The position numbers and the translations under genes were made by a program. A model generated the notes under the pieces. That model saw only the letters and a program-made list of their open reading frames with translations. It searched no databases and had not been told where the DNA came from. A stretch of DNA of 64,000 nt from a virus (taxonomy: Duplodnaviria; Heunggongvirae; Uroviricota; Caudoviricetes): positions 11,528 to 75,527 of IMG/VR virus record IMGVR_UViG_3300028832_000129, one strand, 5' to 3'. Below are positions 23,523-37,371 of this stretch, piece after piece (position 1 is the stretch's first letter; every line of letters starts with the position of its first letter).

Positions 23523-24431
23523 TCAACCTGTAATGAATCCAATGAAGTATCGTTTGTTTTCTTCATAATATTTTTCCCATATATCGATAACTGCCTGCAC
23601 ATGTTTCTTTTCTACGTTATCCATCTTATGGATACAATCGGTGTATGGTGATGCGAGTGCAACATTATCGGCTCCTATATCAGCTATTACCTCATATTCG
23701 TTGCTTTTGCCTGCGCGAGCTACCCATTCGGTTAACATATAGTCTGCCCATCCAAGCAAGGTTTTGTTTTCAATCTTGTTGTTTGGGTGGTCCATGCCAG
23801 TATTGAAAGCCAGAATCTTAAGATTTCCATTATATTCTGACCGTTTTAGACCGGCGTTCAGCACGGCGATTGGCGAATTTGCCCAGCATCCACCGTCAAT
23901 ATATGATTGTCCATCCTTTATGACAACGTCAAAATAGGACGGAGCGGCAGTGCTGGTCAGAATAGCCAACCATTTGTCCGTATCGGTATCACCTAAATCC
24001 CATACTTTTTCTACGCTTTTTCCATTGGTGTGTGTAGTTGGAATAAATATAGGTTTTTTCCAATCGGAAACTTTCCCAGTAAACTTAGATTTTAGTATTT
24101 TAATGAGATTAGTGTTGTCATATGTTGGACATGTAGGTTGTACCCGTTTGTACCATGGATATTTTGTGAATATCTTCCCTAGGTTATTGTAATACAGGTC
24201 GAATAGGTCATGCGCTGAATATCCCTCGTCTAGTCCACCCGCAATGATGGCCCCGGTTGATGTACCGGCAAATGCGATTGCAATATCACCCAGCTTTTTG
24301 CCGATGTCCTGTTCGAGCCTACACATGAAGGCAAGTGGGCCGATACCCAGTGCGCCGCCACCGTTTACGCTGATAGCTATATTCTTCATAATTATACCCC
24401 TGTTTTCTTGCAGTTTATTCGGGTGCCGCAT
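23523..24431 (-). CDS. Patatin-like phospholipase (PNPLA family).
   Basis: GGGALGIG oxyanion motif, AGTSTGAIIAG (GxSxG nucleophile elbow) and DGGCWANSP (catalytic DGG). Alternative start at the internal Met (24389). It is the only minus-strand gene here. Confidence 0.75.
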   Translation of the reverse strand: MRHPNKLQENRGIIMKNIAISVNGGGALGIGPLAFMCRLEQDIGKKLGDIAIAFAGTSTGAIIAGGLDEGYSAHDLFDLYYNNLGKIFTKYPWYKRVQPTCPTYDNTNLIKILKSKFTGKVSDWKKPIFIPTTHTNGKSVEKVWDLGDTDTDKWLAILTSTAAPSYFDVVIKDGQSYIDGGCWANSPIAVLNAGLKRSEYNGNLKILAFNTGMDHPNNKIENKTLLGWADYMLTEWVARAGKSNEYEVIADIGADNVALASPYTDCIHKMDNVEKKHVQAVIDIWEKYYEENKRYFIGFITG

Positions 24432-24461: not shown

Positions 24462-25922
24462 ATGGACGTATTGAGAGAATTGCTGAGTGAAATCCCGGGA
24501 AACACATTGTGCCGCAATGTACTTACCGAGGCATACTGCGCCCTGTTCGAGGACGTGGCCTCAGTAGCCACACACAAGTCCAAGAACGTTATCCGCAGCC
24601 TGTTCCCGCAGCTTGCATCCAGATGGGATGACATTGCCGTGGACGACGCCGGGAACCCCGTGCTGACCATGAGCGGGAAGCAGCAGACATACATCGAGTA
24701 TTTCGAGCGCACAATCAGGAACATGTTCTTCCATGACGGTGCGAACCAGAAGTTCGAACCGGGGGTCACCAGGATTGCATACGGGGAACTCAAGCTGGAG
24801 AATCGTGGACAGGACAGCCGGAAGCTGGCTTCACTCAAGAAGATTGTCAAGCTGATTTCCGAAGGGCACGCCGGCGAGTATGACGGCGACCTCAACGGCA
24901 TGTCCTACGATGAACTGGAGACGCGGTTCGGCACTGTCGTGCAGAAGGCCGACGACGAACTCAAGGAGAAACTCGCATCGGCTGATTACCAGGCAAGCGA
25001 CTACGTAATCAAGGAGATTCCGGATTACAAAAGCGCGACGAAATTCTTCAAGTACACTAACCCGGATTCCCCGTGGTGCATCACCCACATGGAGAACATG
25101 TGGCGTTCGTACACCGCCGACGGGATGAACAGGGTATATTTCGCGTACAGGCCGAACTTCAGGCGGATGAAACCCGTAAAGGGCCCGGACGCGCCGCTAG
25201 ACAGCTACGGATTGTCGCTCATATCCATCATAGTAGACCCGTGGGGCACGCTGCGGGCGGTGACGACCCGGTGGAACCATGCCAACGGCGGTTCGGACCA
25301 GGCGATGGACGCCACCCAGCTGTCCAACGTCCTCGGGGGGAACGTGTTCGAGCTGTGCCCGCCCACGGCAATGCCGGAACGGCATGTCGAGCGCATCGAC
25401 AACGATTCGATACGCATCGGCGACCAGGTATGGATGAGCCACAACCTGCAGATGCGCACGAACAGGAGGCGCGGGATAGTCCACGTCGGCGACGAGACCT
25501 ACTTTACCTGGAATGCCGCAATGGAAGTGGCTGCCGCGTACGGAAACGGCTGGCGGCTCCCTACCATGGACGACTGGGACAAGCTCATAGAGACATGCGG
25601 CGGTTATAAAAAGGCGGGGCTCAACCTCAAGTCGACCGAAGGATGGAGACCGGGCGTCGATGACGAAAACGGAAACGGGTTCGACACGTACGGGTTCGAC
25701 GCGAAACCGGCCGGAAAGTACAACCGCTATCATGGTCGTAGGGGCGTGGGATGTAAGCGGCACTTCGCCTTCTTCTGGACCAGTGACAGGTGTGAAGACA
25801 GTTTCGAGTGGGCCCGCTATGTTGAATTAAATTACCTTGACACTGGGGCCAGTACTAGCATAGGGAAACTCAGTGGTACGGACATGGTCGGACTGTCGGT
25901 CCGTCTTGTCAGGAATGCGTAG
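24462..25922 (+). CDS. FISUMP-domain protein, paralog 1.
   Basis: C-terminus ...YFTWNAAM...GWRLPTMDDWDKLIE..GG..AGLNLKSTEGW..NGNGFDTYGFDAKPAGKY...FFWTSD...GLSVRLVRNA matches the Fibrobacter succinogenes major paralogous (FISUMP) domain. The N-terminal ~300 aa are paralogous to 29042..31648 (RIAYGEL, RWNHAN, ELCPP). The start is moved to the ATG at 24462 to avoid overlap with the patatin gene. Confidence 0.6.
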   Translation: MDVLRELLSEIPGNTLCRNVLTEAYCALFEDVASVATHKSKNVIRSLFPQLASRWDDIAVDDAGNPVLTMSGKQQTYIEYFERTIRNMFFHDGANQKFEPGVTRIAYGELKLENRGQDSRKLASLKKIVKLISEGHAGEYDGDLNGMSYDELETRFGTVVQKADDELKEKLASADYQASDYVIKEIPDYKSATKFFKYTNPDSPWCITHMENMWRSYTADGMNRVYFAYRPNFRRMKPVKGPDAPLDSYGLSLISIIVDPWGTLRAVTTRWNHANGGSDQAMDATQLSNVLGGNVFELCPPTAMPERHVERIDNDSIRIGDQVWMSHNLQMRTNRRRGIVHVGDETYFTWNAAMEVAAAYGNGWRLPTMDDWDKLIETCGGYKKAGLNLKSTEGWRPGVDDENGNGFDTYGFDAKPAGKYNRYHGRRGVGCKRHFAFFWTSDRCEDSFEWARYVELNYLDTGASTSIGKLSGTDMVGLSVRLVRNA

Positions 25923-25947
25923 TCCGCCCGTCATGAAATTATGGAAG

Positions 25948-25970
25948 GTCGCCGCCGGGCGGCCTTTTTG
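25948..25970 (+). terminator. Rho-independent terminator fused to the promoter motif.
   Basis: GC palindrome GCCGCCgGGCGGCC plus TTTTT, running directly into TGCTATATTTGG. Confidence 0.55.
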
Positions 25971-25980
25971 CTATATTTGG
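25964..25980 (+). promoter_or_regulatory. Phage promoter motif CTTTTTGCTATATTTGG.
   Basis: Exact family member, 5 nt upstream of the ligA start. Confidence 0.55.
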
Positions 25981-25984
25981 GGAT

Positions 25985-28093
25985 ATGATAGACTTCAAGC
26001 AGTATGCAGAGATGTGCGACGTTCTCACCCAATGGGCAAGGGAATACGCCGCTGGCACGCCGTCCGTACCGGACGACGTATACGACAAGAATTACATCCT
26101 CCTCAAGGAATTCGAGGCGGCAAACCCCAGTGTCATCCTGGATACCTCGCCAACGCGCCACGTGGAGGACGGGGCTGACGGATTCCGCAAGGTGAAGCAC
26201 GAAATCCCGATGATTTCAATCGCCAACTCCAACGGTATCGAGGAGACCCGCGAATGGGCCACCATGATGTTCAACAACGGAGTCAAGCGTCTGGAAGGCG
26301 AATACAAGCTGGACGGCCTGAGCCTAGCATTGAAGTTCAAGGATGGCCAGCTGGTCGATGCCGTTACCCGCGGCAAGGACAACATCGGCGACTCCGTGTT
26401 CGAGAATGCGCTCCGCGTCAAGGGTGTGCTCACTAAGATTCCCTGGCTCGGCGAGGTGGAAATCCGTGGCGAGACCGTATGGAAATACGCTGACTTCGAA
26501 CCAATCAACGACCAGCTCATTGCCGAGGGGAAGAAGGCCTTCGCCAACCCCAGGAACGGCGCATCGGGTACGCTGAAGTCCCATGACCCGGACGAGGTAG
26601 AATCCCGTGGTCTGTCGTTCGTTGCATATCTCATCGTCAAGGGAAGCCCCAACCGCTTCCAGGATACCGACATCATGCAGTTGCAGGAGTTCGGTTTTGA
26701 AGTACCGGAACACTGGGTTGCCGAGACTGTAGACGAAGTAGTTGAGCTTGCCGAGAGGATGCGCGAGAAGCGTTTCGAACAGCCCTATCCCATTGACGGC
26801 GTAGTGCTGAAGGTGGACGACAAGGAAGACCAGAAGCGCTTCGGATACACCGCGAAGTCCCCGAACTTCTACCGTGCATACAAGTTCCCGCCGGAGGAAA
26901 AGGAGACCGAGCTGCTTGACATCGAGCAGTCCATCGGCATGTCCGGCGCAATCACTCCCGTCGCCATCATCAAGCCGGTGCATCTGGCAATGACGACGGT
27001 ATCGCGCTGTTCCCTGCACAACTGGGACCTCGTCGACTATCTCGGCCTGCACAAGGGTTGCCATGTAGTAATCCGTAAGGCCGGCGAGATTATCCCGGAA
27101 CTGGTCAAGTGTACGGAGACCGACCGTTCCAAGGATACCTACGAAGTCGAACGTACCAAGTGCGACAAGGACAAGATTCCGCATGTCAAGCCGTGGGTTC
27201 CCACGAATGATACGGAGAAGGCATATGAACGCTACCTCCGTCCGGTTACCTGCCCGTGCTGCGGCGGGGAACTGAAGTGCCAGGTGAACAATGAAGGCAA
27301 GGAACTGGTCGCCTGGGTATGCTCCAACGAGGAATGCCGTACACAGATTGGCGGCAAGCTCGCCAACTTCGTATCCCGTGAATGCATGAACATCATGGGT
27401 ATCGGCGAGTCGATAGTGGAACAGCTGCTGGAGGCAGGCAAGCTCCGCTTCTTTACGGACTTCTATACGTTGACCATACAGGACATCATGGACGCATGCG
27501 GCAAGACTGAAGCCGGTGCGAAGAAACTCCTGCAGAGCATCGACAAGTCGAAGGGAAACTACCTCCATCAGCTTATCGAGGGCTTCTCCATTCCTGGCCT
27601 AGGTCACCAGGTAGCCCCGGCCGTGGCCAAGTGTGTCCATGATGCCGGTGGCTTCATCCGTATCTATCAGGATGGCGACCCTACCGGGTTCATCGACGAC
27701 TTCTGCTACCGTGCCCAGAAGGCCGGCATCTCCCCGGTAATCGTCGGAAAGTTCTGTGAGTTCGTCACCAAGTATGAGGGTGCCCTTACCGAGTTCGCTA
27801 CATGGGGTGTCGCCCAGAACGTGAAGGAAGTGCAGTCCGCGAAGCTCGCCGGGAAGGTGTGCATCATGACCGGCACGTTCGAGAAGCTCGACCGAGACGT
27901 GTTCAAGGACATGGTCGTTGCCAACGGCGGCACCATCTGTTCTTCCATTACAAAGAAGTGCAACGTGGTGCTCATGGGAGACAACGCCGGGCCGTCCAAG
28001 GTACAGAAGATTGACGAGCTCAGGAAGGCCGGCCAGGAGATTACGGTGTACACCCCGGAAACCCTGCAGCAGTTCCTGGACCTGCTCAAGTGA
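25985..28093 (+). CDS. ligA: NAD-dependent DNA ligase.
   Basis: Adenylation motif EYKLDGLS (KxDG). Cys4 zinc finger CPCCGG...CSNEEC. C-terminal BRCT-like segment KVCIMTGTF...VVLMGDNAGPSKVQKIDELRKAGQEI. 702 aa. Confidence 0.9.
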   Translation: MIDFKQYAEMCDVLTQWAREYAAGTPSVPDDVYDKNYILLKEFEAANPSVILDTSPTRHVEDGADGFRKVKHEIPMISIANSNGIEETREWATMMFNNGVKRLEGEYKLDGLSLALKFKDGQLVDAVTRGKDNIGDSVFENALRVKGVLTKIPWLGEVEIRGETVWKYADFEPINDQLIAEGKKAFANPRNGASGTLKSHDPDEVESRGLSFVAYLIVKGSPNRFQDTDIMQLQEFGFEVPEHWVAETVDEVVELAERMREKRFEQPYPIDGVVLKVDDKEDQKRFGYTAKSPNFYRAYKFPPEEKETELLDIEQSIGMSGAITPVAIIKPVHLAMTTVSRCSLHNWDLVDYLGLHKGCHVVIRKAGEIIPELVKCTETDRSKDTYEVERTKCDKDKIPHVKPWVPTNDTEKAYERYLRPVTCPCCGGELKCQVNNEGKELVAWVCSNEECRTQIGGKLANFVSRECMNIMGIGESIVEQLLEAGKLRFFTDFYTLTIQDIMDACGKTEAGAKKLLQSIDKSKGNYLHQLIEGFSIPGLGHQVAPAVAKCVHDAGGFIRIYQDGDPTGFIDDFCYRAQKAGISPVIVGKFCEFVTKYEGALTEFATWGVAQNVKEVQSAKLAGKVCIMTGTFEKLDRDVFKDMVVANGGTICSSITKKCNVVLMGDNAGPSKVQKIDELRKAGQEITVYTPETLQQFLDLLK

Positions 28094-28100
28094 GTGCGCC

Positions 28101-28262
28101 ATGAAGGGATACATAATTGCGATTGTCCTGGTGCTCCTGCTCGCCGTGATGAACGTCTGTTTTCTCGGGTGCTCCACCGGAGAGACCGGCGCTGACGCGT
28201 GGTGTACGTCGACCGACTCGACTGCAACCTGCGGAGACGTGCAGTACGAGATACATCGGTGA
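28101..28262 (+). CDS. Small putative lipoprotein, 53 aa.
   Basis: MKGYIIAIVLVLLLAVMNVCFLGCSTGE has a signal peptide and a FLGC lipobox. Followed by a strong terminator hairpin at 28283-28314. Confidence 0.4.
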   Translation: MKGYIIAIVLVLLLAVMNVCFLGCSTGETGADAWCTSTDSTATCGDVQYEIHR

Positions 28263-28342
28263 CATGTATTGAATCATACGGAATGCCGCCCCTAGCGGGC
28301 GGCATTTTGTGTTTCGCTAAACTTACAATTGGAGATAATGAT

Positions 28343-28570
28343 ATGAAGAAGATTCTGATTGTATTGGCACTGCTCGCATGTTCAGTATTCGCCGGGAAGC
28401 CCGTCAAGGTGGAGGTGTGCCGCCCGAGCTTCTGCTACACCTACGTGTTCAACGACGTGAGGAAGGCGGAGTACAGCGTAGACCTGACCGGGAAGAGGTT
28501 CGTCCGGGTGTATTTCATCAACGGGAAAATCCTGGATATCACCGGGGACGTTAAAATCCTGAAGAAATAA
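28343..28570 (+). CDS. Small secreted protein or lipoprotein, 75 aa.
   Basis: GGAGATAAT RBS-like. MKKILIVLALLACSVFAG has a signal peptide and an LLAC lipobox. Confidence 0.45.
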   Translation: MKKILIVLALLACSVFAGKPVKVEVCRPSFCYTYVFNDVRKAEYSVDLTGKRFVRVYFINGKILDITGDVKILKK

Positions 28571-28604
28571 TTCACTTTTTTCGCGGTACCCGCCTCCACG
28601 CCAG

Positions 28605-28624
28605 GAGTTTTTTGCTATATTTGG
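28605..28624 (+). promoter_or_regulatory. Phage promoter motif TTTTTTGCTATATTTGG directly upstream of a tRNA.
   Basis: Exact motif. tRNA-Gly(CCC) begins 8 nt downstream. Confidence 0.55.
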
Positions 28625-28631
28625 TATATCA

Positions 28632-28704
28632 GCGGGAATAGCTCAGTTGGTAGAGCGCGACCTTCCCAAGGTCGATGTCGAGGGTTCGAGCCCCTTTTCC
28701 CGCT
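28632..28704 (+). tRNA. tRNA-Gly(CCC).
   Basis: GCGGGAATAGCTCAGTTGGTAGAGCG..CGACC-TTCCCAA-GGTCG..GGTTCGAGCC..TTCCCGC. Clean cloverleaf. The CCA is not encoded. Confidence 0.85.
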
Positions 28705-28964
28705 CTAACAAGTTGGCGTACATGCGCCGCATCACGCGGAGTTGGCCATTCGAATGTTCCTAGGTTCGAAACTGGGGACAGGAGAGCCACCTAGGGCTCC
28801 GTGAAACGTGCGGGTCGGGCCTGGCGCTGCGCTTGGTTTGATGCTGTCCTGTGCTGTGGCCCTCCGCGAGGAGTCTAAACGGCTTGCGGTGCGGTCGACG
28901 GTGTCGCCTCCGTCGCGGTGCGTGCAAAACCCGGTCTGCACAGATGTTGCGCATGAACGCCAAC

Positions 28965-28980
28965 TTTTTGCTATATTTGG
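28965..28980 (+). promoter_or_regulatory. Phage promoter motif TTTTTGCTATATTTGG.
   Basis: Exact motif ~60 nt upstream of the 29042 gene. Confidence 0.5.
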
Positions 28981-29041
28981 GGTAGGCCATACGTGCCTAC
29001 CCTTTATTATATTGTCAACACCATAACTATCAAGGTTATAA

Positions 29042-31648
29042 ATGAGCGAAAAGGAACTTGGCCCGGGAAGCGAGGGCGACGCATACAGGTACACCAAGAA
29101 GGTGCTTCTTTCCCTTCCGAACTTGAACGAAATCCGCCGCATCTATACCGAGATTGCGTTCAACAGGAATATATCGTCCTGGACCCGTGCATGCTACGAG
29201 GAACTCCGCAGGCAGTTCTTCCGTGACGGCCAGTGCAAGATTAAGTTCGCCCCGGGGCTTGCCCGTATCGCATACGGGGAGCTCCTCTTCGGTACGGGCG
29301 ACGAGGACTTCCGCCAGCTTGCCGACCTCCGCGACTTCGTGCGCATCATCTCTATCGCGCACTTTACAGAATTTACCCGCCACATCGCAATCGACGGCAA
29401 GGAACTCTCGTTCAAGGACCTCGTCGACCGCTTTGGCAGCACCGTGTCCGGTAACTGGAAGGAACTGAAGCGCGAGCTTGGCAAAATCCAGTACGGCCCG
29501 CGTCGATACAAGGTAATCTGGCTGGATTCGTTTGCCACTGCCAACAAGTATTACCAGTACACCGCCCCGCATAACTGGTGCCATCTAGGTTCCAAGAGCA
29601 TGTTCAAGTCGTATTCCTACAGCCGGAAGACCGATTCCAAGGGAAACTCCAGGATTTCCGTGGTGAAGCTGTACCTTGCCGTGCTTCCCGGTTTCGAGAC
29701 GATGACGGAAGACGACCCGCTGTATGGCGAGTCCATGCTCGGCATCGATATCGGTCCCGATGGCCGTCTCATGCACGTGAACAACCGCTGGAACCACGCG
29801 CACGACAATATCGACGAACGCAAGGGCGACAACAAGTATTCCGAGAGGGAACTGTCCGAACTCATGGGCGGCCCGTTCTATAAGCTTTGCCCTCCGTTCA
29901 GCAAGAGGGACTACCAGCACATCGAGAGTGTAATGAAACGCGCCCGCCAGAAGGACAACAGGGTATGCCTCAGCTGGGCAAAGAAGCTCGCCAACAAGAT
30001 AACCAATGCGGTGACTGCAAAGTGCAGTACTCGTGAACGCAAGTTCGTCGACGATAGGGATGGCCGCGCATACCGCACGGCGGTAATCGGTAATCGCGAA
30101 TGGATGCTTGACCCGGTATCCTATATCTCGGTCCCGGATATCCGTGAGAGCACCGGGGTTGCCGACAACCGCAAGGCTCTTGAATATGACTGGTATTGTT
30201 TCGATGAACTGCATTCGAAGAAGGGTCTCCGCTATGAGTCCGAAGGTCGCATCACTGTAGGCAACAGAGGAGTTGTCTATCACCCGGAGGGAGATACTGA
30301 CATCGATATGGATGGGGACATGGTTGAGGGCTGTGTACAGGACGAGGAAATCATTCCGGACCCGGTGTGTCTCAACAAGTTCATGCCGCTTACATCCATT
30401 GACATCGACCGTAACGGTCACGCAAAGGTGTACCTGTCTTCCGACGTGTACAAGATGAGCGACTCCGGCAACTACGACTCGTACGAGAGCCATGCCTATC
30501 AGCAGGCATGCGATAATTACCGTCAATGGCGTGCAGACACAATCGACCCCGGCGAGAACAAGCTGGACAAGGACGGAAAGTATGTCATGTACAGTGACGA
30601 CAATTACTGCGGCGTGTTTGTTGATGAGTACAGCGCCCTTGAGATGATTACCCCGCTTGGCTTTGACAAGACTCGCTGGAAAACTCTCAATGAAGGCAAG
30701 CAGAGGATTCTGGTGAACGACCTGGATGCCGATAGGAACTTTGTATTCTACAGTGCAAGGACTGTGCTGCATGCAATCCCCGCAGGCTGGCGTGTCCCTA
30801 CCTTGTTCGAGTTCTTGGGCATGGCTATTGCGAAGGGAGCCAAGTTCAGGTTCAGCCATGGAATCGGTGTATCCAAGGACGAGAACGCTGTCCTGGTTAC
30901 ACGTGAAGGTGTCGTGTCAAAGGAAGATGCGGTCGATGACCTGAAGGGCCTTGTATTCGAGGAACTTATTGAAGGCAAGATTGAACGCAAGTACGATACC
31001 CAGACGACGAATGCGTTGCGTGAGCGTATCACTGCTGCACCCAGGATAGTTGATGCCGGGCAGGACGCGGATGAAGACATCGAGGAAACCGTTGAAGACC
31101 CGGGAGATACGGACGATGCACAGCAACGGCAGCCGCAGCAAGATGACGGCTTCGGGTTTGACCTCAACTCTGCAGTACCTCCCCTGAATATCCGTCTTCC
31201 GGCTATGGAATTCGCAATGAAAAAGTTCGGGTTCGCATTCCCGGAAGAGATTAGGCAAGAGGCCAAGCCGTTCGCTATTGATGAAGCCACGCCGATGCTT
31301 GCAAGGCCTATCCTCCTGTCTCTCGACGGAGTGGACAAGATGAATGAAACAGAGGTAAAGAAGTTCTGCCGCAAGTTCGGGAAGGATGGTTCCTTCAAGT
31401 ATTGGCATGACGATGACTATACGGAAGAACTGGAAAATGCCGTGCATGACCTTCTTGACGCAGTAGATGCCGAGACTGCACACGCAAATGGTGCGGATGA
31501 TGTCCCAAAGAAACCGTATGCGTGCGCTACCTGGAGCGAATCCGACAATACGTTTACCATTTCGGTAAAGGACCGGTTCGACACGAGCGACAGTTACTTC
31601 ATGCTCTACTGCGTGAAGGACAGCAAGCAACTGATGCCTACCATTTAG
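29042..31648 (+). CDS. FISUMP-domain protein, paralog 2, 868 aa.
   Basis: N-terminal ~300 aa collinear with 24462..25922 (RIAYGELLFG, NNRWNHAHD, KLCPPF). Internal FISUMP-like segment (AGWRVPTLFEFLGMAIAKGAKFRF). Acidic Gln/Asp-rich C-terminal region. Confidence 0.6.
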   Translation: MSEKELGPGSEGDAYRYTKKVLLSLPNLNEIRRIYTEIAFNRNISSWTRACYEELRRQFFRDGQCKIKFAPGLARIAYGELLFGTGDEDFRQLADLRDFVRIISIAHFTEFTRHIAIDGKELSFKDLVDRFGSTVSGNWKELKRELGKIQYGPRRYKVIWLDSFATANKYYQYTAPHNWCHLGSKSMFKSYSYSRKTDSKGNSRISVVKLYLAVLPGFETMTEDDPLYGESMLGIDIGPDGRLMHVNNRWNHAHDNIDERKGDNKYSERELSELMGGPFYKLCPPFSKRDYQHIESVMKRARQKDNRVCLSWAKKLANKITNAVTAKCSTRERKFVDDRDGRAYRTAVIGNREWMLDPVSYISVPDIRESTGVADNRKALEYDWYCFDELHSKKGLRYESEGRITVGNRGVVYHPEGDTDIDMDGDMVEGCVQDEEIIPDPVCLNKFMPLTSIDIDRNGHAKVYLSSDVYKMSDSGNYDSYESHAYQQACDNYRQWRADTIDPGENKLDKDGKYVMYSDDNYCGVFVDEYSALEMITPLGFDKTRWKTLNEGKQRILVNDLDADRNFVFYSARTVLHAIPAGWRVPTLFEFLGMAIAKGAKFRFSHGIGVSKDENAVLVTREGVVSKEDAVDDLKGLVFEELIEGKIERKYDTQTTNALRERITAAPRIVDAGQDADEDIEETVEDPGDTDDAQQRQPQQDDGFGFDLNSAVPPLNIRLPAMEFAMKKFGFAFPEEIRQEAKPFAIDEATPMLARPILLSLDGVDKMNETEVKKFCRKFGKDGSFKYWHDDDYTEELENAVHDLLDAVDAETAHANGADDVPKKPYACATWSESDNTFTISVKDRFDTSDSYFMLYCVKDSKQLMPTI

Positions 31649-31664
31649 TACAAAGGAGTACCAT

Positions 31665-32015
31665 ATGCTTGTATATGTACCGAATTTTATTACCCTATTG
31701 CGACAGAGGTATTCTACTCTGAAGTTGCCTGGCGGCATCCATTATGATAATTCTGCAGTGCTGTGTCGCATGCAGTATGAGGTGCGCCTTGAGAAGAAGG
31801 TAGGCTCGAAAACTATCGTCGTGGAACTCGTGGCAAGATACGGTAAAGTCGAATTCCGGAAGCCGTTCACCGAGGATTTCTTGACAACTGGAGACCCGTC
31901 AAAGGTGATGGAGAAAATCAACGAGTATGCTGACGATGGATACGTCGTGTCGCATCAGACGCTGATGTACGGGGCGTCTGACAGCTGCGCCTATACACCA
32001 ACGAGTAGAATGTAA
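31665..32015 (+). CDS. Hypothetical protein, 116 aa.
   Basis: Intact ORF immediately after the paralog. Confidence 0.45.
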   Translation: MLVYVPNFITLLRQRYSTLKLPGGIHYDNSAVLCRMQYEVRLEKKVGSKTIVVELVARYGKVEFRKPFTEDFLTTGDPSKVMEKINEYADDGYVVSHQTLMYGASDSCAYTPTSRM

Positions 32016-32431
32016 CGAAAATTTTACACATTTTTCTTGCATTTTCCCTTGCCATTTCATTCGTTTTTATCTACTATTGCTATAAACATTACGTCAAAGG
32101 AATTAAAGATGCTAAAGCAACTCAACAATCTGTGCAAATTAACAGCTGCGGCCCAGGACGCACGTTATTTTGGCATTTTGGGTTTCGCAGGAAAAGCGGA
32201 GGCTGATGCAACTTAGTTCCAGGTAGACGAAAAGGTTTACGAGAGACGAAAAGGGCGGTTGCATCAGCAGGCAACCGCCCTTTCCGTTTAACCATTCGGG
32301 GGCGCATGTTCCAAGGTGGCGAATGATGCTGGCAGCATCGTTGAGAAGGATTCGATTTCCTTCGCTTCCATTAAAGCAAGGCTCGAGCAGCCTTGCGGTA
32401 GATTGACAGTTCGGATGCGATATGTTTTATG

Positions 32432-32504
32432 GGCCATTAGCTCAGTTGGTAGAGCGCCTGATTTGCACTCAGGAGGTCATCGGTTCGACCCCGATATGTG
32501 TCCA
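32432..32504 (+). tRNA. tRNA-Ala(TGC)-like. The acceptor stem is imperfect.
   Basis: GGGCCATTAGCTCAGTTGGTAGAGCG CCTGA-TTTGCAC-TCAGG ..ATCGG-TTCGACC-CCGAT. The 3' acceptor ATGTGTC pairs poorly with the 5' GGGCCAT. Preceded by the repeated 20-mer AGATTGACAGTTCGGATGCG. Confidence 0.5.
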
Positions 32505-32595
32505 GTATAATATGGGCTGCTAGAAGCAAGGGTAGCCAGCAACTACCCGATGGGCACTGCCTGGACAGATAGTAATCTATCCGTATTCCTAGGAA

Positions 32596-32697
32596 CCAAC
32601 CGTCGCCGTTGCCGGCGGCAGTGTTCCGACATGATGGGATAAGGACATTACGGGACTGGGGTCCATGCGAGGCCGGTTCGATTCCGGTGCGGTCCAC
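32596..32697 (+). ncRNA. tRNA-like element: canonical T-arm plus 3' acceptor, with the 5' partner unresolved.
   Basis: ...GCCGG-TTCGATT-CCGGT-GCGGTCC-A. No clean complementary 5' acceptor was found by eye. May be a degenerate or split tRNA. Confidence 0.25.
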
Positions 32698-32704
32698 TAT
32701 TTCG

Positions 32705-32775
32705 GGTCATTAGTTCAATGGTAGAATTCCCGGTCCGCATCCGGGGGATACCGGTTCGACCCCGGTATGTATCCA
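32705..32775 (+). tRNA. tRNA with an atypical anticodon loop TCCGCAT (anticodon CGC?). The acceptor stem is imperfect.
   Basis: GGGTCATTAGTTCAATGGTAGAAT..CCCGG-TCCGCAT-CCGGG..ACCGG-TTCGACC-CCGGT-ATGTATC. Shares the same acceptor oddity as 32432. Confidence 0.4.
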
Positions 32776-32791
32776 TTAGTTTGTTTGTATT

Positions 32792-32865
32792 CTCATCTAT
32801 ATCAACTGGTTAGATAGTCGCTCTGATAAGGCGGAGGTTCTTGGTTCGAGTCCAAGGGTGAGAAC
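32792..32865 (+). tRNA. tRNA-Ile(GAT).
   Basis: Acceptor TCTCATC/GGTGAGA, anticodon arm TCGCT-CTGATAA-GGCGG, T-arm CTTGG-TTCGAGT-CCAAG. Confidence 0.75.
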
Positions 32866-32872
32866 TATCATG

Positions 32873-32946
32873 CCACTGTAGCTCAGTCCGGTAGAGCGGG
32901 GGCCTGAAGAGCCCCGCGTCGAAGGTTCGATTCCTCCCGGTGGCAC
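32873..32946 (+). tRNA. tRNA-Phe(GAA).
   Basis: GCCACTGTAGCTCAGTCCGGTAGAGC G GGGGC-CTGAAGA-GCCCC ..GAAGG-TTCGATT-CCTCC-CGGTGGC. Confidence 0.85.
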
Positions 32947-33029
32947 TAAAATATGTTCGACAAATATATGAATGACATAATGAACAAAATTATGTATTTT
33001 TATATAAGGTTTATCGAAGAGTTGACAAT

Positions 33030-33767
33030 ATGAACTATAGACATATTTACTTAAACATTATCTTCCGTGCGCAAAATGATTATTTATCACGGTTAAAATT
33101 GAAGAAACATGGGATGTATTTTGAAAAGCACCATGTTCTCCCGCGGTCATTAGGTGGTAAAAATATCGCAAGTAATATAGTCTTATTGACGGGGAGAGAA
33201 CATTTTATTTGCCATTGGTTGTTGTTTAAAATGTTTAATAAGGGGACTATAGAGAGGAGCAAGATGCTATTTGCTTTATGGTGTATGAAATCGATTGAAC
33301 GCGGTCATACAGGAAGATATATTAATGCGAGAACATATGAATATATTCGGGCCGAGTTTGCGAGTATGGTAGGCCAGCTTAACTCAAAGCTGCAATCAGG
33401 TAGCCAAAATTCGCAATATGGAAAAATATGGTATACTAATGCATACACTGGTGCATCCACGTCATCCATAATTCCGTTAAAATATCCTTGGTATAAAGGC
33501 CGTAGACTGTTTCGCGGGGAAACAATGGTACTATTTAATAAAACCCAGCAATGTAGTATGATTCTGGCCAAACAAATATGGGACTTATTTCATAGTGGAA
33601 ACTACACATCATTTAGTGAGTTTACCAGCATGACTAATTTGCCGTTAAAGCGGCCTGGTATTCTGGCATTATTTAATAAATATGTGCCAATATCACGAAC
33701 TTTATGGAAGGATTCCACTAAGCCAAAACAGTCGGACAGTGCATATGTTGGACGATACTATAAATAA
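33030..33767 (+). CDS. HNH homing endonuclease.
   Basis: EKHHVLPRSLGGKNIASNIVLLTGREHFICH is an HNH motif. The gene sits in an AT-rich islet (32950-33890) inside the tRNA array. Confidence 0.75.
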   Translation: MNYRHIYLNIIFRAQNDYLSRLKLKKHGMYFEKHHVLPRSLGGKNIASNIVLLTGREHFICHWLLFKMFNKGTIERSKMLFALWCMKSIERGHTGRYINARTYEYIRAEFASMVGQLNSKLQSGSQNSQYGKIWYTNAYTGASTSSIIPLKYPWYKGRRLFRGETMVLFNKTQQCSMILAKQIWDLFHSGNYTSFSEFTSMTNLPLKRPGILALFNKYVPISRTLWKDSTKPKQSDSAYVGRYYK

Positions 33768-33892
33768 GAATTCCAGCATTATATAATAGGTATTAATATA
33801 TTTAGGGTGAATGTCACGATGAACGCAGCGTGTCATCCCGTAATACTGACTCGTTTGACTAACCAATATAAGTTTAACCCAGTAATTATTAT

Positions 33893-33965
33893 TCCACCTT
33901 AGCTCAGTTGGTAGAGCACCCGACTGTTAATCGGGTCGTCCCTGGTTCGAGTCCAGGAGGTGGAG
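33893..33965 (+). tRNA. tRNA-Asn(GTT).
   Basis: TCCACCTTAGCTCAGTTGGTAGAGCA CCCGA-CTGTTAA-TCGGG..CCTGG-TTCGAGT-CCAGG-AGGTGGA. Confidence 0.85.
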
Positions 33966-33969
33966 CTAT

Positions 33970-34055
33970 GCCGGTTTCGCCTAGCGGTCAATGGCAGGAG
34001 GCTGTAACCCTCCCGTTCTCACGAACTTCCGGTGGTTCGAATCCATCAGCCGGCA
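33970..34055 (+). tRNA. tRNA-Tyr(GTA), class II with a long variable arm.
   Basis: Acceptor GCCGGTT/AGCCGGC. Anticodon arm GGAGG-CTGTAAC-CCTCC. Variable stem-loop CGTTC-TCAC-GAAC. Confidence 0.8.
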
Positions 34056-34069
34056 CTATATATTCTTAT

Positions 34070-34144
34070 GCGGCATTAGCTCAGTTGGCTTAGAGCGCAA
34101 CCTTGCCATGGTTGAGGTCACGAGTTCGATTCTCGTATGCCGCT
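34070..34144 (+). tRNA. tRNA-Gly(GCC).
   Basis: GCGGCATTAGCTCAGTTGGCTTAGAGCG CAACC-TTGCCAT-GGTTG..ACGAG-TTCGATT-CTCGT-ATGCCGC. Confidence 0.85.
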
Positions 34145-34147
34145 TAC

Positions 34148-34220
34148 TGCCCGTTCGCCAAGTTGGTAAGGCACACGACTCTGACTCGCGCATTCGGTGG
34201 TTCGAGTCCATCACGGGCAA
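34148..34220 (+). tRNA. tRNA-Gln(CTG).
   Basis: Very close to the E. coli tRNA-Gln architecture: TGCCCGTTCGCCAAGTTGGTAAGGCA CACGA-CTCTGAC-TCGCG CATTC GGTGG-TTCGAGT-CCATC ACGGGCA. Confidence 0.75.
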
Positions 34221-34224
34221 CTAC

Positions 34225-34304
34225 CTCGACGTGGGGGAACTGGTAGACCCGCCGGCTTCAGGAGCCGGTGCATTTGCGTGCAAGTCCGAGTCTTGCCGTC
34301 GAGA
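34225..34304 (+). tRNA. tRNA-Leu(CAG).
   Basis: Acceptor CTCGACG/CGTCGAG. Anticodon arm CCGGC-TTCAGGA-GCCGG. T-arm GCAAG-TCCGAGT-CTTGC. Extra arm present. Confidence 0.75.
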
Positions 34305-34317
34305 CTAATGGAAACTC

Positions 34318-34401
34318 CGGCGATTGCTGGAATAGGTAGACAACCCGGTCTTAAAAACCGGGGCACTTGCGTGCGTATCGGTTCGAGCCCGATATCGCCG
34401 A
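34318..34401 (+). tRNA. tRNA-Leu(TAA).
   Basis: Acceptor CGGCGAT/ATCGCCG. Anticodon arm CCCGG-TCTTAAA-CCGGG. Long variable arm. T-arm ATCGG-TTCGAGC-CCGAT. Confidence 0.8.
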
Positions 34402-34485
34402 TAGGAGGTACACACGATGAAGAAGATTCTTAAACGCACCCGATTATGATGGTTGCAGTTGCCATGCTCTTATCAACTGCACTCT

Positions 34486-34557
34486 GCGGGTGTAGCTCAG
34501 AGGAAGAGCAACGTACTTTTAATACGTGGGTCGGGATTTCGAAATTCCCCACCCGCA
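34486..34557 (+). tRNA. tRNA-Lys(TTT).
   Basis: GCGGGTGTAGCTCAGAGGAAGAGCA ACGTA-CTTTTAA-TACGT..TTCGAAA..CACCCGC. Confidence 0.8.
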
Positions 34558-34561
34558 CTAT

Positions 34562-34633
34562 GCGAATATGGTGTAATTGGCAACACGACAGCCCTCCAAG
34601 CTGTAGTTTCCGAATCGTTGTCGGATATTCGCT
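34562..34633 (+). tRNA. tRNA-Gly(TCC) with a non-canonical T-loop.
   Basis: Acceptor GCGAATA/TATTCGC. Anticodon arm ACAGC-CCTCCAA-GCTGT. T-arm TCCGA-ATCGTTG-TCGGA has a perfect stem but an unusual loop. Confidence 0.65.
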
Positions 34634-34639
34634 TATCAT

Positions 34640-34715
34640 CCCCGGGTAGCCGAACTGGCATAGGCGGGCGATTCAAAATCGCCGACATCTGAAGGTTCGA
34701 TTCCTTCTCCGGGGA
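34640..34715 (+). tRNA. tRNA with anticodon CAA (Leu-type anticodon) but a short variable loop, which is atypical.
   Basis: Acceptor CCCCGGG/TCCGGGG. Anticodon arm GGCGA-TTCAAAA-TCGCC. 7-nt variable region. T-arm GAAGG-TTCGATT-CCTTC. Confidence 0.55.
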
Positions 34716-34725
34716 CTAAACGATT

Positions 34726-34799
34726 GGCGGCATAGCTCAATGGATTAGAGCGACAGATTTCTAATCTGTTGGTTCCAAGTTCGAGTCTTGGTGTCGTCA
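34726..34799 (+). tRNA. tRNA-Arg(TCT).
   Basis: GGCGGCATAGCTCAATGGATTAGAGCG ACAGA-TTTCTAA-TCTGT..CCAAG-TTCGAGT-CTTGG-TGTCGTC. Confidence 0.8.
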
Positions 34800-34803
34800 T
34801 AAT

Positions 34804-34874
34804 TGGCTTATGGTGTAGAGGTAGCACGGGTGGTTTTGAGCCATCAGGGCTGGGTTCGAGGCCTGGTTGGCCAA
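34804..34874 (+). tRNA. tRNA-Gln(TTG).
   Basis: Acceptor TGGCTTA/TTGGCCA with one mismatch. Anticodon arm GGTGG-TTTTGAG-CCATC. T-arm CTGGG-TTCGAGG-CCTGG. Confidence 0.6.
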
Positions 34875-34877
34875 TAT

Positions 34878-34959
34878 CCCGCAGTGGCGGAACTGGTAGA
34901 CGCGTGCGCCTTAGGAGCGCATGCCGAAAGGTGTGCAGGTTCGAGTCCTGCCTGCGGGA
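34878..34959 (+). tRNA. tRNA-Leu(TAG).
   Basis: Perfect acceptor CCCGCAG/CTGCGGG. Anticodon arm TGCGC-CTTAGGA-GCGCA. Long variable arm. T-arm GCAGG-TTCGAGT-CCTGC. Confidence 0.85.
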
Positions 34960-34978
34960 CTAAACAAAGGAGGAATAT

Positions 34979-35416
34979 ATGAGAAGACTGTTCATCATTC
35001 GCAAGGACCTGGACTTGTCCAAGGGAAAGCTTTCGGCGATGGTAGCCCATTGCGCCGAAGGTTTCTGGACACGCCTCATCTCCCGAAGTGCGACGAAGGA
35101 AGGCGACTCATACTCCGTCAAGTTCGAACTGGATTCAGCCACGATGGACGAGTATGTCCGCGGGCTGTTCGTTAAGACCGTGTGCGAGGCGAAGAACCTC
35201 ACCCACCTCATGAAGGTGGAGGAAGTCGCCAAGGGGTTCGGCCTTGTCGAGAATGTAGACTACGGCTTCATCGACGACGCGTGTCTTACCGAGCTTACCC
35301 CGGAGTCGACCGACGAGAACGGCAACGGCTACTGTAGGGTGGGCATCTGGTTCAGGCCGCTGCCGGACGACGTGAGCCATGCCCTCAGCAGGAAGTACCA
35401 GCTTTTCCGGGGATGA
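34979..35416 (+). CDS. Peptidyl-tRNA hydrolase, PTH2 family.
   Basis: Strong AAAGGAGGAATATATG RBS. N-terminus RLFIIRKDLDLSKGKLSAMVAHCAEG matches the Pth2 signature (..vvR.Dl.mgkGKiaAQ.aHAa). Collinear mid and C-terminal blocks. Embedded between tRNA genes. Confidence 0.7.
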   Translation: MRRLFIIRKDLDLSKGKLSAMVAHCAEGFWTRLISRSATKEGDSYSVKFELDSATMDEYVRGLFVKTVCEAKNLTHLMKVEEVAKGFGLVENVDYGFIDDACLTELTPESTDENGNGYCRVGIWFRPLPDDVSHALSRKYQLFRG

Positions 35417-35425
35417 CCCGGGATA

Positions 35426-35507
35426 TGTCGGGGTGGTGGAATTGGTAGACGCGCTGGTCTGAGAGGCCAGTGGGGAGACCCGTGCAGGTTCAAGTCCTGT
35501 TCCCGAC
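35426..35507 (+). tRNA. tRNA-Leu(GAG).
   Basis: Acceptor GTCGGGG/TCCCGAC. Anticodon arm CTGGT-CTGAGAG-GCCAG. Long variable arm TGGGGAGACCCGTG. T-arm GCAGG-TTCAAGT-CCTGT. Confidence 0.85.
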
Positions 35508-35513
35508 ACTATA

Positions 35514-35587
35514 CGCACTCGTAGCCAAGTGGATTAAGGCGGGGGCCTGCAAAGCCCCCATGCGGGGGTTCGAGTCCCTCCGAGTGC
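35514..35587 (+). tRNA. tRNA-Cys(GCA).
   Basis: GCACTCGTAGCCAAGTGGATTAAGGCG GGGGC-CTGCAAA-GCCCC..GGGGG-TTCGAGT-CCCTC-CGAGTGC. Confidence 0.85.
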
Positions 35588-35629
35588 TCTATTTGACCAT
35601 GTTTAGCAGAAAGGACTCCACTCGGGTCG

Positions 35630-35645
35630 ATTTTTGCTATATTTG
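35630..35645 (+). promoter_or_regulatory. Phage promoter motif TTTTTGCTATATTTGG.
   Basis: Exact motif at the start of a ~450-nt ORF-free structured region. Confidence 0.5.
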
Positions 35646-35703
35646 GTTAGCAAGAATTTCGTGCCAAGATATAAACAAAAACCACCAGGTTGACGTTTTT
35701 GCA

Positions 35704-35720
35704 GAAAATTGCTATATTTG
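35704..35720 (+). promoter_or_regulatory. Phage promoter motif AAAATTGCTATATTTGG.
   Basis: Second motif copy 60 nt downstream of the first. Followed by the repeated 20-mer AGATTGACAGTTCGGATGCG at 35751. Confidence 0.5.
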
Positions 35721-36088
35721 GTACACCGGGAAGCCCGTGAGGTTCCCCAGAAGATTGACAGTTCGGATGCGTTTCCTTTGCAGTTCGGGTTAAACTGCGC
35801 GTTGCAACCAACGATAGGTTGCTCGCATTTTGAAGATTTTACGAAATCTTACCCCGGCGGGAGGCGTCCCGCCCGAAGCCACGCGCTTTGGCGTGGTGGA
35901 ATACCTTTAGCATAAACGTGAGTGCGCCCGGGTTCGCAACCGGGAGGTGTCTTCTGCTCAGGAAGGCAAGGGAAATTAACTAATGAGTTCGGCGTGAGCC
36001 GGGACGGGCGGACGTATAGGGCTAGTTCCATTGCCCTTCTCCTTTTTGGTTGTGTCGAGGTCCCCCGTCCCGCTCGCGCCGTTCGCAT

Positions 36089-36161
36089 GGCGATGTCGTC
36101 TAGAGGCCTAGGACACAGGATTTTCATTCCTGGAACTCGGGTTCGAATCCCGGCATCGCTA
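36089..36161 (+). tRNA. tRNA-Glu(TTC).
   Basis: Glu-type D-arm TCGTCTAGAGGCCTAGGAC. Anticodon arm CAGGA-TTTTCAT-TCCTG. T-arm TCGGG-TTCGAAT-CCCGG. Acceptor GGCGATG/CATCGCT with G1·U72. Confidence 0.75.
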
Positions 36162-36169
36162 CTAATCAT

Positions 36170-36242
36170 CGCGGGATGGAGCAGTTGGTAGCTCGCGAGG
36201 CCCATAACCTCGAGGTCGTCGGTTCGAGTCCGACTCCCGCTA
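36170..36242 (+). tRNA. tRNA-Met(CAT), initiator-like.
   Basis: CGCGGGATGGAGCAGTTGGTAGCTCG CGAGG-CCCATAA-CCTCG AGGTC GTCGG-TTCGAGT-CCGAC TCCCGCT. Closely parallels E. coli tRNA-fMet, including an unpaired position 1-72. Confidence 0.75.
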
Positions 36243-36250
36243 CGAAACAT

Positions 36251-36355
36251 TGCCAAATGGCGGAAAGTGCATCGACGATGCCGTTAGACGCAGGGGAATC
36301 TAAGTCCCCGGCCCTCGCGCGAAAGGGTGTCCAGGTTCGAGTCCTGGTTTGGTAA
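36251..36355 (+). tRNA. Atypical long tRNA-like gene with a CUA (amber-reading) anticodon arm.
   Basis: Acceptor TGCCAAA/TTTGGTA (7 bp incl. G·U). T-arm CCAGG-TTCGAGT-CCTGG. Perfect anticodon arm GGGGA-ATCTAAG-TCCCC (anticodon CTA at 36300-36302). A ~16-nt palindromic hairpin (GCATCGACGATGC) is inserted in the D-region. Total ~105 nt. Confidence 0.4.
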
Positions 36356-36380
36356 CTATGATTTTGCCGTCGCTAAGACT

Positions 36381-36454
36381 GGGTGGGTAAGCTCAGGTGG
36401 TAGAGCTCGGGTGGAAAACAACCCGGGACACCGGTTCGAGTCCGGTTCTGTCCT
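36381..36454 (+). tRNA. tRNA-like or pseudo-tRNA with a possible 8-nt anticodon loop.
   Basis: D-arm TAAGCTCAGGTGGTAGAGCT and T-arm ACCGG-TTCGAGT-CCGGT are canonical. The acceptor GGGTGGG/TCTGTCC is mostly G·U. The anticodon stem CGGGT/ACCCG encloses GGAAAACA. Confidence 0.3.
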
Positions 36455-36579
36455 GTTGATTGCGGCGGAAGTGCCGGGAAGACGTCCCCGGCGCGGCGCT
36501 ATTAAGTCATTTTCGGATTAGGGCCCCGACGCACCAGCAAAACCGTTTGGTACCTATAGAAAATGACCGCCGTTCCCAT

Positions 36580-36668
36580 GGCCACGTAGCTTAGCAAGGT
36601 GGACGAGGCCTCGTCAGAGCGCCCGGCTAACCAGGCCGGGAGACGCCGGTTCGATTCCGGCCGTAGAT
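36580..36668 (+). tRNA. tRNA-like element with a hairpin insertion. Not resolvable by eye.
   Basis: 5' GGCCACG-TA-GCT..., a perfect inserted palindrome GACGAGG/CCTCGTC, CCCGGC-TAACCAG-GCCGGG arm and T-arm GCCGG-TTCGATT-CCGGC. The 3' acceptor does not pair cleanly. Confidence 0.25.
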
Positions 36669-37273
36669 TGGGACGGCAAACCTTTAACGACACAGTCGCC
36701 TGTTAGGCGAACCGCCCGAGAGCATGTTCCTGCTGCCGTATAATTTTCCGGCGGACGCTCTAGGGGGTCAGCAAAATGATGCCGTGTGTTAGGACGCACT
36801 TGGCAGCATAGAGAAGGTGGTCTCCGGAGGCCGGCGGACTCAGTCCCTGTTTCCGGTATGTGCTCTAGGGTAACGGCCGAACATGAAATCCCGTGGGCCG
36901 ACCCGTGACGGGGAATTAACGAAAGTCACGGAAGGCCCGGCGTGATTCTCGCGGGAGACGGCTGTGTCATACGTTTAGGCGCAAAGGGAGTTCCTATTGA
37001 AACTTCCAACAACAGTGACTTACTCCCAGCGCTTGCTTTTAGACACCAAGGCGGTTCCTACCCAAAGCTTGGTCTGCAAAACCGATTTACCGCCAGTGTC
37101 GCTTTTAAATGTGTACCCGGACGTATTTTTCGTTGTGGGTTGATGATTTGTGCCAATCCGAGTACATGAATTTGCGTGCCCAAACGAAGTTCCTCGTTTG
37201 ATGGTTGACTTACTTCCCGGGCACGCATTTTGTTTGATGAGTGCTAGAACGGTTGCTGATTTAGTTCATCTTT

Positions 37274-37348: not shown

Positions 37349-37371
37349 CTATATTACCGTAGGAGATTTCA

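Follow-up and report, generated by a model that had tools for sequence, protein, structure and literature searches.

Two genes on a 64,000-nt stretch of a Caudoviricetes virus (IMG/VR record IMGVR_UViG_3300028832_000129, positions 11,528 to 75,527; this whole stretch is called the window) encode the proteins P1 and P2, which lie on either side of ligA, the gene for an NAD-dependent DNA ligase. The original prediction had described them as two paralogous FISUMP (Fibrobacter succinogenes major paralogous) proteins. We find that the feature that unifies them with their relatives is an uncatalogued N-terminal domain (the N-domain), which is joined to C-terminal modules of at least four exchangeable kinds, FISUMP being one of them. 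The conserved residues of the N-domain look like an active site, judged from an alignment and a structural model. As the explanation that we favor, tentatively and at somewhat less than an even chance, P1 and P2 would belong to a large family of modular, non-secreted effectors of huge phages in which a thiol-type catalytic head is combined with a swappable targeting module. The open reading frames (ORFs) and the extent of the N-domain in each protein are as follows.

24462..25922, plus strand: P1, an ORF of 486 amino acids (aa) with an ortholog of the same length (P0001) at 92% identity
24462..25376, plus strand: P1 N-domain, aa 1-305, with a helical subdomain (aa 1-175) and an alpha/beta core of four strands (aa 176-305)
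25985..28093, plus strand: ligA, NAD-dependent DNA ligase, 702 aa
29042..31648, plus strand: P2, an ORF of 868 aa with full-length orthologs (P0050-P0057) of 866-891 aa on contigs of up to 327 kb
29042..29911, plus strand: P2 N-domain, aa 1-290, with the invariant residues described below intact

P1 and P2 share an uncatalogued N-terminal domain

Residues 85-326 of P1 align with residues 55-311 of P2 at 32% identity (BLASTP E 1e-33), and the RIAYGEL, RWNHA, and (E/K)LCPP blocks are found in both proteins. The common N-terminal domain of ~300 aa that had been claimed is therefore real, with ~260-300 aa aligning, and the homology of the two N-domains confirms that the proteins are paralogous. 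P1 shares 64-92% identity with P1-like proteins of other phages and only ~32% with P2; on this sequence comparison, therefore, P1 and P2 are old paralogs from two subfamilies and not the products of a local duplication. The window holds exactly two genes of this family.

The N-domains of P1 and P2 have no match in Pfam-A, NCBIfam, PHROGs, or PADLOC. Those of 27 diverse family members, scanned at permissive thresholds, were likewise unmatched in Pfam, NCBIfam, and PHROGs, and a profile of the domain found nothing among PDB sequences beyond a chance match to CheA (E 0.38). Searched against 1.84 billion cluster representatives, the same profile retrieved 1166 proteins at E≤1e-3, 441 of them at E≤1e-30. 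The family comprises more than 1000 clusters at 50% identity. Its members come almost throughout from metagenomes, and no source gives the family a name. Many lie on contigs of 100-470 kb, some of which carry several paralogs, and proteins of the P1/P2 type also occur on metagenomic contigs of 257-472 kb.

A DNA search of ~50,000 deposited phage genomes with the region returned nothing similar beyond tRNA matches. When collections of cultured phages and plasmids were searched by DNA and tblastn with the region, the P1 N-domain, and P0184, only tRNA-Gly or WG-repeat matches appeared, and tblastn found no N-domain there. A P1-like profile had no match on bacterial contigs (one genome per species), a weak negative, since near-exact peptide patterns are needed for a hit. 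The literature on FISUMP, TIGR02145, and WG_beta_rep yielded no account of these phage proteins. The N-domain, the size of the family, and the regular pairing of the domain with "extracellular-type" binders in proteins that lack secretion signals hence appear to be undescribed; the architecture itself, a catalytic head with a swappable binder and links to polyvalent proteins, is of an already known kind.

Signal peptides and transmembrane segments were sought by a crude hydropathy scan only. No hydrophobic segment resembling either was seen, whether in P1 and P2 or in the 201 family proteins that were scanned, in agreement with the earlier statement that P1 and P2 lack signal peptides.

A cluster of invariant residues marks a putative active site

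To describe conservation, we used 100 copies of the N-domain, non-redundant at ≤60% identity, and P1 numbering. Six residues (Y181, C206, Y226, S252, R270, and N272) are 100% conserved. H273 is present in 97% and D279 in 96% of the copies, and W205, P245, Y249, and G250 in 93-99%, at an overall identity between subfamilies of just 25-35%. P2 keeps the whole set as Y156, C180, Y211, S231, R249, N251, H252, and D263. In P1, these residues are encoded at the following positions.

25002..25298, plus strand: invariant cluster Y181, W205-C206, Y226, P245, Y249-G250-x-S252, R270-W-N272-H273, and D279
25077..25079, plus strand: codon for C206
25278..25280, plus strand: codon for H273

An AlphaFold2 model of the N-domain alone (predicted local distance difference test [pLDDT] score 86.3, predicted template modeling score 0.72) begins with a helical subdomain at aa ~15-175 and continues into an alpha/beta core with four strands at aa ~180-300. 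The model places C206 at the N terminus of a helix, and S252 and R270-H273 at those ends of the beta3-beta4 hairpin that face each other. One invariant Cys thus precedes a His and an Asp in proteins that carry no secretion signal, a pattern for which catalysis is the best explanation and metal binding a possible one. We infer that the N-domain is a thiol-dependent enzyme, most likely a Cys→His→Asp hydrolase (peptidase, amidase, or deamidase-like). Many thiol hydrolases have their catalytic residues in this order.

The N-domain is joined to interchangeable modules

The C-terminal partner of the N-domain is FISUMP, WG_beta_rep, LRR_5 (BspA-type), Lcl_C/DUF1566, ANTAR, or nothing recognizable. 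FISUMP is the partner in the P1 orthologs, and WG_beta_rep is the partner in P0026-P0037 and in 16 of 60 diverse members. Domains known from bacterial surface binders (FISUMP, WG, BspA LRR, and DUF1566) are in this way systematically joined to the N-domain in proteins that lack secretion signals. Enzymes are fused to it as well: ART-PolyVal precedes the N-domain and LRR_5 in P0145, InPase precedes the N-domain and WG in P0132, and NUDIX follows them in P0156. One family member has a BRCT match. The possible surface- or glycan-binding role in the original prediction survives as one of the alternatives weighed here, but it is a poor fit to these relatives with ADP-ribosyltransferase, pyrophosphatase, and Nudix domains.

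The main rival to the effector explanation is that the proteins are virion-surface adhesins or receptor-binding proteins, in which the N-domain would anchor to capsid, neck, or baseplate, the C-terminal module would bind host glycans, and multiple paralogs would widen host range. We regard this as unlikely, though much about the family suits it. FISUMP, WG, LRR, and DUF1566 modules are classic extracellular binders, a constant N terminus is followed by a variable, faster-evolving C terminus, paralog families occur inside single genomes, and some members lie in structural-gene regions, one of them (L023) with a faint XkdV_N match downstream. FISUMP/DUF1566 motifs are also a recognized class of targets diversified by diversity-generating retroelements (DGRs), an example being a surface lipoprotein (PMC5758913). 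Against an adhesin, there is no fibrous shaft or trimerization region, FISUMP starting ~10 residues after the N-domain, and a plain anchor would not require a set of polar residues (Cys, Ser, Arg, Asn, His, and Asp) to be invariant. The fusion partners ART-PolyVal, InPase, and NUDIX are ill-suited to the virion exterior, and the copies in the window lie among replication and tRNA genes. Moreover, the cysteine of the "CP.GW" motif, which the original prediction listed for both proteins, is missing from P1 (YGNGW) and P2 (IPAGW); the cysteines of FISUMP proteins are thought to form extracellular disulfides (PMC5758913).

Some giant proteins of the family hold two to four copies of the N-domain, and one four-copy protein is a continuous ORF of 2218 codons. 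Proteins of 1900-2500 aa with three to four tandem [N-domain + WG repeat] units in a single ORF are found at L022:9965-16618 and also as P0059, P0060, P0061, and P0067, and at least two such giants share one 280-kb contig. Multi-unit polypeptides of this kind raise a further alternative, that the N-domain is a self-processing cysteine protease that cuts precursors into binder or effector pieces. Its co-occurrence with polyvalent-protein domains fits such a role, as does the Cys→His→Asp order, which suits many thiol peptidases. Autoproteolysis by peptidase domains has been proposed for polyvalent proteins (PMC5512222). However, P1, P2, and most other members consist of a single unit, from which no obvious piece could be set free; no fold match to peptidase clans was obtained, and no cleavage site was identified. 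We consider self-processing quite unlikely.

In L006 and L007, the position of P1 is taken by a 236-aa protein (5370-6080 on both contigs) that consists of P1's first ~29 aa and FISUMP, with no N-domain. This protein looks like a natural internal deletion. Because it retains the first ~29 residues of P1, the extreme N-terminal peptide may be important by itself.

FISUMP is complete in P1 and split in P2

The C-terminal parts of the two proteins are laid out as follows.

25410..25913, plus strand: P1 FISUMP domain, predicted to be C-type-lectin-like, aa 317-484
30041..30130, plus strand: P2 FISUMP fragment 1, FVDDRDGRAYRTAVIGNREWML, aa 334-363, corresponding to TIGR02145 positions 1-30
30131..30676, plus strand: P2 insert of ~180 aa between the FISUMP fragments
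30677..30961, plus strand: P2 FISUMP fragment 2, FVFYSA..AIPAGWRVPTLFEF.., aa 546-640
31049..31168, plus strand: P2 acidic low-complexity linker, aa 670-709
31169..31645, plus strand: P2 C-terminal region, family-specific, ~160 aa

FISUMP had been predicted in both proteins, to be checked by a TIGR02145 scan. In P1, residues 317-484 cover the whole TIGR02145 profile at 73.5 bits (cut-off 41.65) and match PF09603 at 64 bits (cut-off 33.9). A C-type-lectin-like fold is suggested by a weak Lcl_C match and by weak Foldseek matches, the best of which, with E-values no lower than 0.06, are to C-type lectin-like chains of snake venoms; the full-length AlphaFold2 model of P1 has a mean pLDDT of 82.9. 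Among P1 orthologs, FISUMP diverges faster than the N-domain (~47% versus ~74% identity). The prediction does not carry over to P2, in which fragment 1 scores 37.3 bits (E 4.4e-9), under the same TIGR02145 cut-off, no PF09603 match was found in Pfam, and fragment 2 was recovered by hhalign against the FISUMP profile of the P1 family (93% probability, E 3.8e-7, template positions 25-129). From these profile scores, P2 is therefore a degenerate, split relative of FISUMP and not a scoring member.

The ~180-aa insert of P2 has no family match in Pfam or NCBIfam and is conserved in the alignment of P2 orthologs. An acidic repetitive tail had also been ascribed to P2. The stretch in question (aa 670-709; 40 aa with a net charge of -14) turns out to be internal, shows no tandem repeat at the DNA level, and is followed by a region of ~160 aa that aligns in all full-length P2 orthologs and was seen in the P2 family only. 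The end of this region, "...YFMLYCVKD", was considered as a mimic of the FISUMP C terminus and was not supported by hhalign, which found no relationship between the last 170 aa of P2 and FISUMP.

Two proposals concern the origin and diversification of these modules. The first, that the domain had been borrowed from the host, could not be shown: no close FISUMP relative was found when bacterial contigs (one genome per species) were scanned with P1 FISUMP, by a method that detects near-identical peptides only. The second is that the FISUMP domains are DGR targets and that P1 and P2 are hypervariable binders. DGR-carrying Bacteroides phages do come up in the literature on Fib_succ_major. The proposal is nevertheless largely refuted for the window and highly improbable, as no template/variable repeat in the 64 kb corresponds to the 3′ end of either gene, and no reverse transcriptase was present among the larger window ORFs scanned.

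The arrangement around ligA is specific to one phage lineage

The gene between P1 and P2 had been called an NAD-dependent ligase, and the call is sound: ligA scores 497 bits against NF005932 (cut-off 369) and 471 bits against TIGR00575 (cut-off 444), and the adenylation (PF01653), OB (PF03120), and BRCT (PF00533) domains are present. P1, ligA, and P2 have one orientation, with two small ORFs and a tRNA-Gly gene (28632..28705) between ligA and P2.

Comparison of related contigs does not support a conserved pair around the ligase. The near-identical contig L004 has the arrangement of the window. L002 has a P1-like gene and then ligA, with P2 absent within 10 kb; L001 has a P1-like gene and no ligA. 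The order is patatin, FISUMP-only gene, ligA, P2 in L006/L007, and patatin, ligA, an Amidase_2 gene, P2, without P1, in L008/L009. The pair around ligA is thus specific to this phage lineage, and adjacency to ligA is incidental. What stays constant across loci is P2 together with a downstream ORF:

31665..32015, plus strand: 116-aa ORF directly 3′ of P2, also found after P2 in L005, L006/L007, L008, and L009

Counterparts of this ORF are 45-81% identical to the window copy. Identity to the L008/L009 counterparts is 81% for this ORF and 56% for P2, and in L006 the ORF overlaps the P2 stop. It has no match in PHROGs or PADLOC. Conceivably, its product assists P2 as a partner or chaperone, or inhibits it.

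The Amidase_2 gene between ligA and P2 in L008/L009 bears on another alternative, that the family are lysins or virion-associated envelope hydrolases with an N-terminal catalytic and a C-terminal wall-binding domain. An enzyme with a swappable binder does recall endolysins. The N-domain nevertheless has no sequence or fold likeness to known peptidoglycan hydrolase families, its 170-aa helical subdomain and its concatenation into two to four units are atypical, and the ART, InPase, and NUDIX fusions do not match. No holin or spanin context was seen, although no systematic search for one was made. We judge a lysin to be very unlikely.

In more distant phages, the family is in some cases encoded near virion genes. 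L023 has TerL, Portal_T4, and directly after them two family genes, with the faint XkdV_N match downstream. L021 and L025 each have a family gene at a distance of 4-6 kb on the upstream side of Peptidase_S77 (prohead protease) and Gp23 (major capsid), with InPase and SprT-like genes close by. The family genes of L022 are located among replication genes.

Promoter-like motifs separate P1, ligA, and P2

Three signals lie at the borders of the genes.

25943..25968, plus strand: terminator-like hairpin directly after P1 and before the ligA motif, with an 11-bp stem, 6 GC pairs, and a T-run
25966..25980, plus strand: promoter-like motif TTTTGCTATATTTGG just upstream of ligA
28966..28980, plus strand: promoter-like motif TTTTGCTATATTTGG, 61 nt upstream of P2

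The 15-nt motif occurs 12 times in the window (≤2 mismatches), always on the plus strand, versus 0.1 copies expected; the copies start at 25966, 28610, 28966, 35632, 35707, 43680, 49769, 54095, 54517, 56421, 59419, and 60635. Those inspected in sequence sit just upstream of ligA, tRNA-Gly, and P2, and one stops 7 nt short of tRNA-Gly, a spacing that fits a transcription start there. The motif is probably a phage promoter, to judge by its sequence and its distribution. It contains TAnnTTTG, which we take to be the Bacteroidota -7 promoter box. A host in the FCB group, as suggested earlier, is weakly compatible with this motif.

The copy upstream of P2 suggests that P2 has its own transcription unit. 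Because of the terminator-like hairpin after P1 and the motif before both ligA and P2, the three genes are probably separate transcription units. A strong GC-rich hairpin (28979..29003) was also seen just after the P2 copy of the motif; this hairpin and the one at 25943..25968 may be terminators or regulatory stems.

These signals bear on the idea that P1 and P2 work with the DNA ligase in repair or replication, for which adjacency in the window and in L004 and the BRCT match in one family member could be cited. The adjacency is not conserved across loci, P1 is followed by a terminator-like hairpin while ligA and P2 each have a promoter-like motif, and neither P1 nor P2 has a nucleic-acid-binding domain. 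The comparative contexts contradict a link to the ligase, and we give it next to no credence.

A targeted effector is the favored explanation

In the explanation that we favor, the N-domain, a helical bundle with a small alpha/beta core, would act as a thiol-dependent catalytic head, and the interchangeable C-terminal module would bind and thereby steer the N-domain to its target. The proteins, being unsecreted, would act on host macromolecules inside the infected cell, and the capsid might carry them there together with the DNA. Short LxE or GSE motifs, considered as N-terminal signals for capsid targeting or protease cleavage, are poorly conserved. Intracellular action and delivery are suggested by the relatives that are fused to polyvalent-protein enzymes or encoded beside portal, prohead-protease, and capsid genes. 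ART-PolyVal and InPase are polyvalent-protein domains, and proteins of that type are predicted to be packaged and injected with phage DNA (PMC5512222).

Several points weigh against this explanation. The invariant Cys, His, and Asp could be metal ligands rather than a catalytic triad, and a fold search with the N-domain gave no match to any peptidase clan. The P1 counterpart in the L006/L007 lineage has lost its N-domain, so that copy is dispensable. In bacteria, FISUMP, WG repeats, LRR_5, and DUF1566 are typically extracellular binders, which would favor a virion-surface role. Finally, the copies in the window are found among replication and tRNA genes (exonuclease, ligA, and the tRNA array) and not in a head module.

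A bolder version, which we hold to be improbable, sees the N-domain as a new-fold thiol enzyme that serves huge phages as a "programmable" intracellular effector. Lectin-like, WG, and LRR modules, which otherwise bind outside the cell, would be reused in the host cytoplasm to aim it at specific host proteins or glycoconjugates, and the paralog arrays and polyproteins of two to four units would form a specificity panel. The family would then be to phages what polymorphic toxins are to bacteria.

The genomes of huge phages include hundreds of genes without an assigned function, and this family now has a testable active-site signature in which Cys, Ser, Arg, and Asn are invariant and His and Asp nearly so. 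Should the N-domain prove to be an enzyme that these phages deliver to the host cell, its proteins would constitute a new class of targeted phage effectors, and their modules would offer a route to the host targets. Should the proteins prove to be virion adhesins instead, uncultured huge phages of the gut and rumen type would possess in them a widespread system for receptor binding. Under both readings, an annotation as "FISUMP domain protein" overlooks what matters most.

Other features of the window

With its 33 tRNA genes and a transfer-messenger RNA (tmRNA), an exonuclease gene, HNH endonucleases, and a CCA-adding-type nucleotidyltransferase, the window appears to come from a huge phage. 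The tRNA genes (28632..42799) cover most amino acids, and the tmRNA (~38777..39136) has the tag ADNAFAYAVAA. Other annotated genes are listed below.

23523..24431, minus strand: patatin-like phospholipase, divergent from P1
42836..43669: calcineurin-like phosphoesterase
44356..45159: SPFH/Band 7 protein
48172..49428: CCA-adding or poly(A)-polymerase-head nucleotidyltransferase
50089..51357: RRXRR-HNH endonuclease
51364..52650: AAA_5 ATPase
54571..55527: DUF932 protein

The patatin-like gene is kept at the same position in all syntenic phage contigs and matches PADLOC "Effector" phospholipase models (E 1.7e-33); it may represent a phage-carried gene that resembles effectors of bacterial defense systems. 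A second, permuted tmRNA call (39044..39558) overlaps the first and may be an artifact. HNH- or homing-endonuclease-like ORFs are interspersed among the tRNA genes, one with an HNH_3 match (37372..38232) and one without a Pfam match (33030..33767). The array also contains a 145-aa ORF (34979..35416) whose equivalents in L006 and L008 are PTH2 peptidyl-tRNA hydrolases of 145-146 aa. Toward the start of the window (3384..16374) lie large co-oriented ORFs of 1153, 609, 1497, 540, and 516 aa, which have no Pfam match save a sub-threshold DnaJ-type CXXCXGXG zinc finger in the 1497-aa protein; they may encode structural proteins.

Comparison with known systems

Among the FISUMP proteins of Fibrobacter and Bacteroidota, the C terminus of P1 is a bona fide member by score, and P2 retains two fragments. 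Lipoprotein signals are typical of the bacterial FISUMP proteins, as are cysteines that are believed to pair in extracellular disulfides (PMC5758913), whereas P1 and P2 have neither the signal nor the "CP.GW" cysteine and are joined to a large unrelated N-domain. The variable proteins of DGRs with C-type-lectin folds (Mtd, and Legionella LdtA of the DUF1566/Fib_succ_major class) are likewise phage-encoded, with a faster-evolving lectin-like C-terminal module; they differ from P1 and P2 in their unrelated N-terminal part and in the template/variable repeat pair and reverse transcriptase, neither of which was found in the window.

For the N-domain, the order C206→H273→D279 and the modeled position of the Cys at the start of a helix would fit papain-like, NlpC/P60, and transglutaminase-fold hydrolases, and no fold or sequence similarity to members of these groups was detected. 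The best fold match is malonyl-CoA decarboxylase, and it is not significant. In that enzyme, too, an alpha/beta domain comes after a helical one. The order of the core, beta1-alpha-alpha-beta2-beta3-beta4-alpha, resembles the N-terminal half of GNAT, again with no significant fold match. Three "PcfJ-like" viral models appeared in Foldseek at E 0.02-0.4 and a TM-score ≤0.22, and Pfam PcfJ (PF14284) is unmatched.

Endolysins offer a similar combination of a constant, here putative, catalytic head and a shuffled binding module. The family departs from them in having no homology to lysin catalytic domains, in its multi-unit concatenation, and in its ART, InPase, and NUDIX fusions.

The comparison with polyvalent proteins (Iyer et al. 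2017, PMC5512222) is mixed. By a term search, WG repeats, leucine-rich repeats, lectins, and PcfJ are not mentioned in PMC5512222, and nothing that the search returned matched the N-domain; binding modules as partners are unusual for polyvalent proteins. Like polyvalent proteins, P0145, P0132, and P0156 combine at least two disparate biochemical activities, which P1 and P2 do not, having one putative catalytic domain and a binder. A portal, head, or packaging context was seen for the relatives in L021, L023, and L025 and was not seen in the window or in L022. The family as a whole nonetheless resembles polyvalent proteins in consisting of large multidomain phage proteins without secretion signals.

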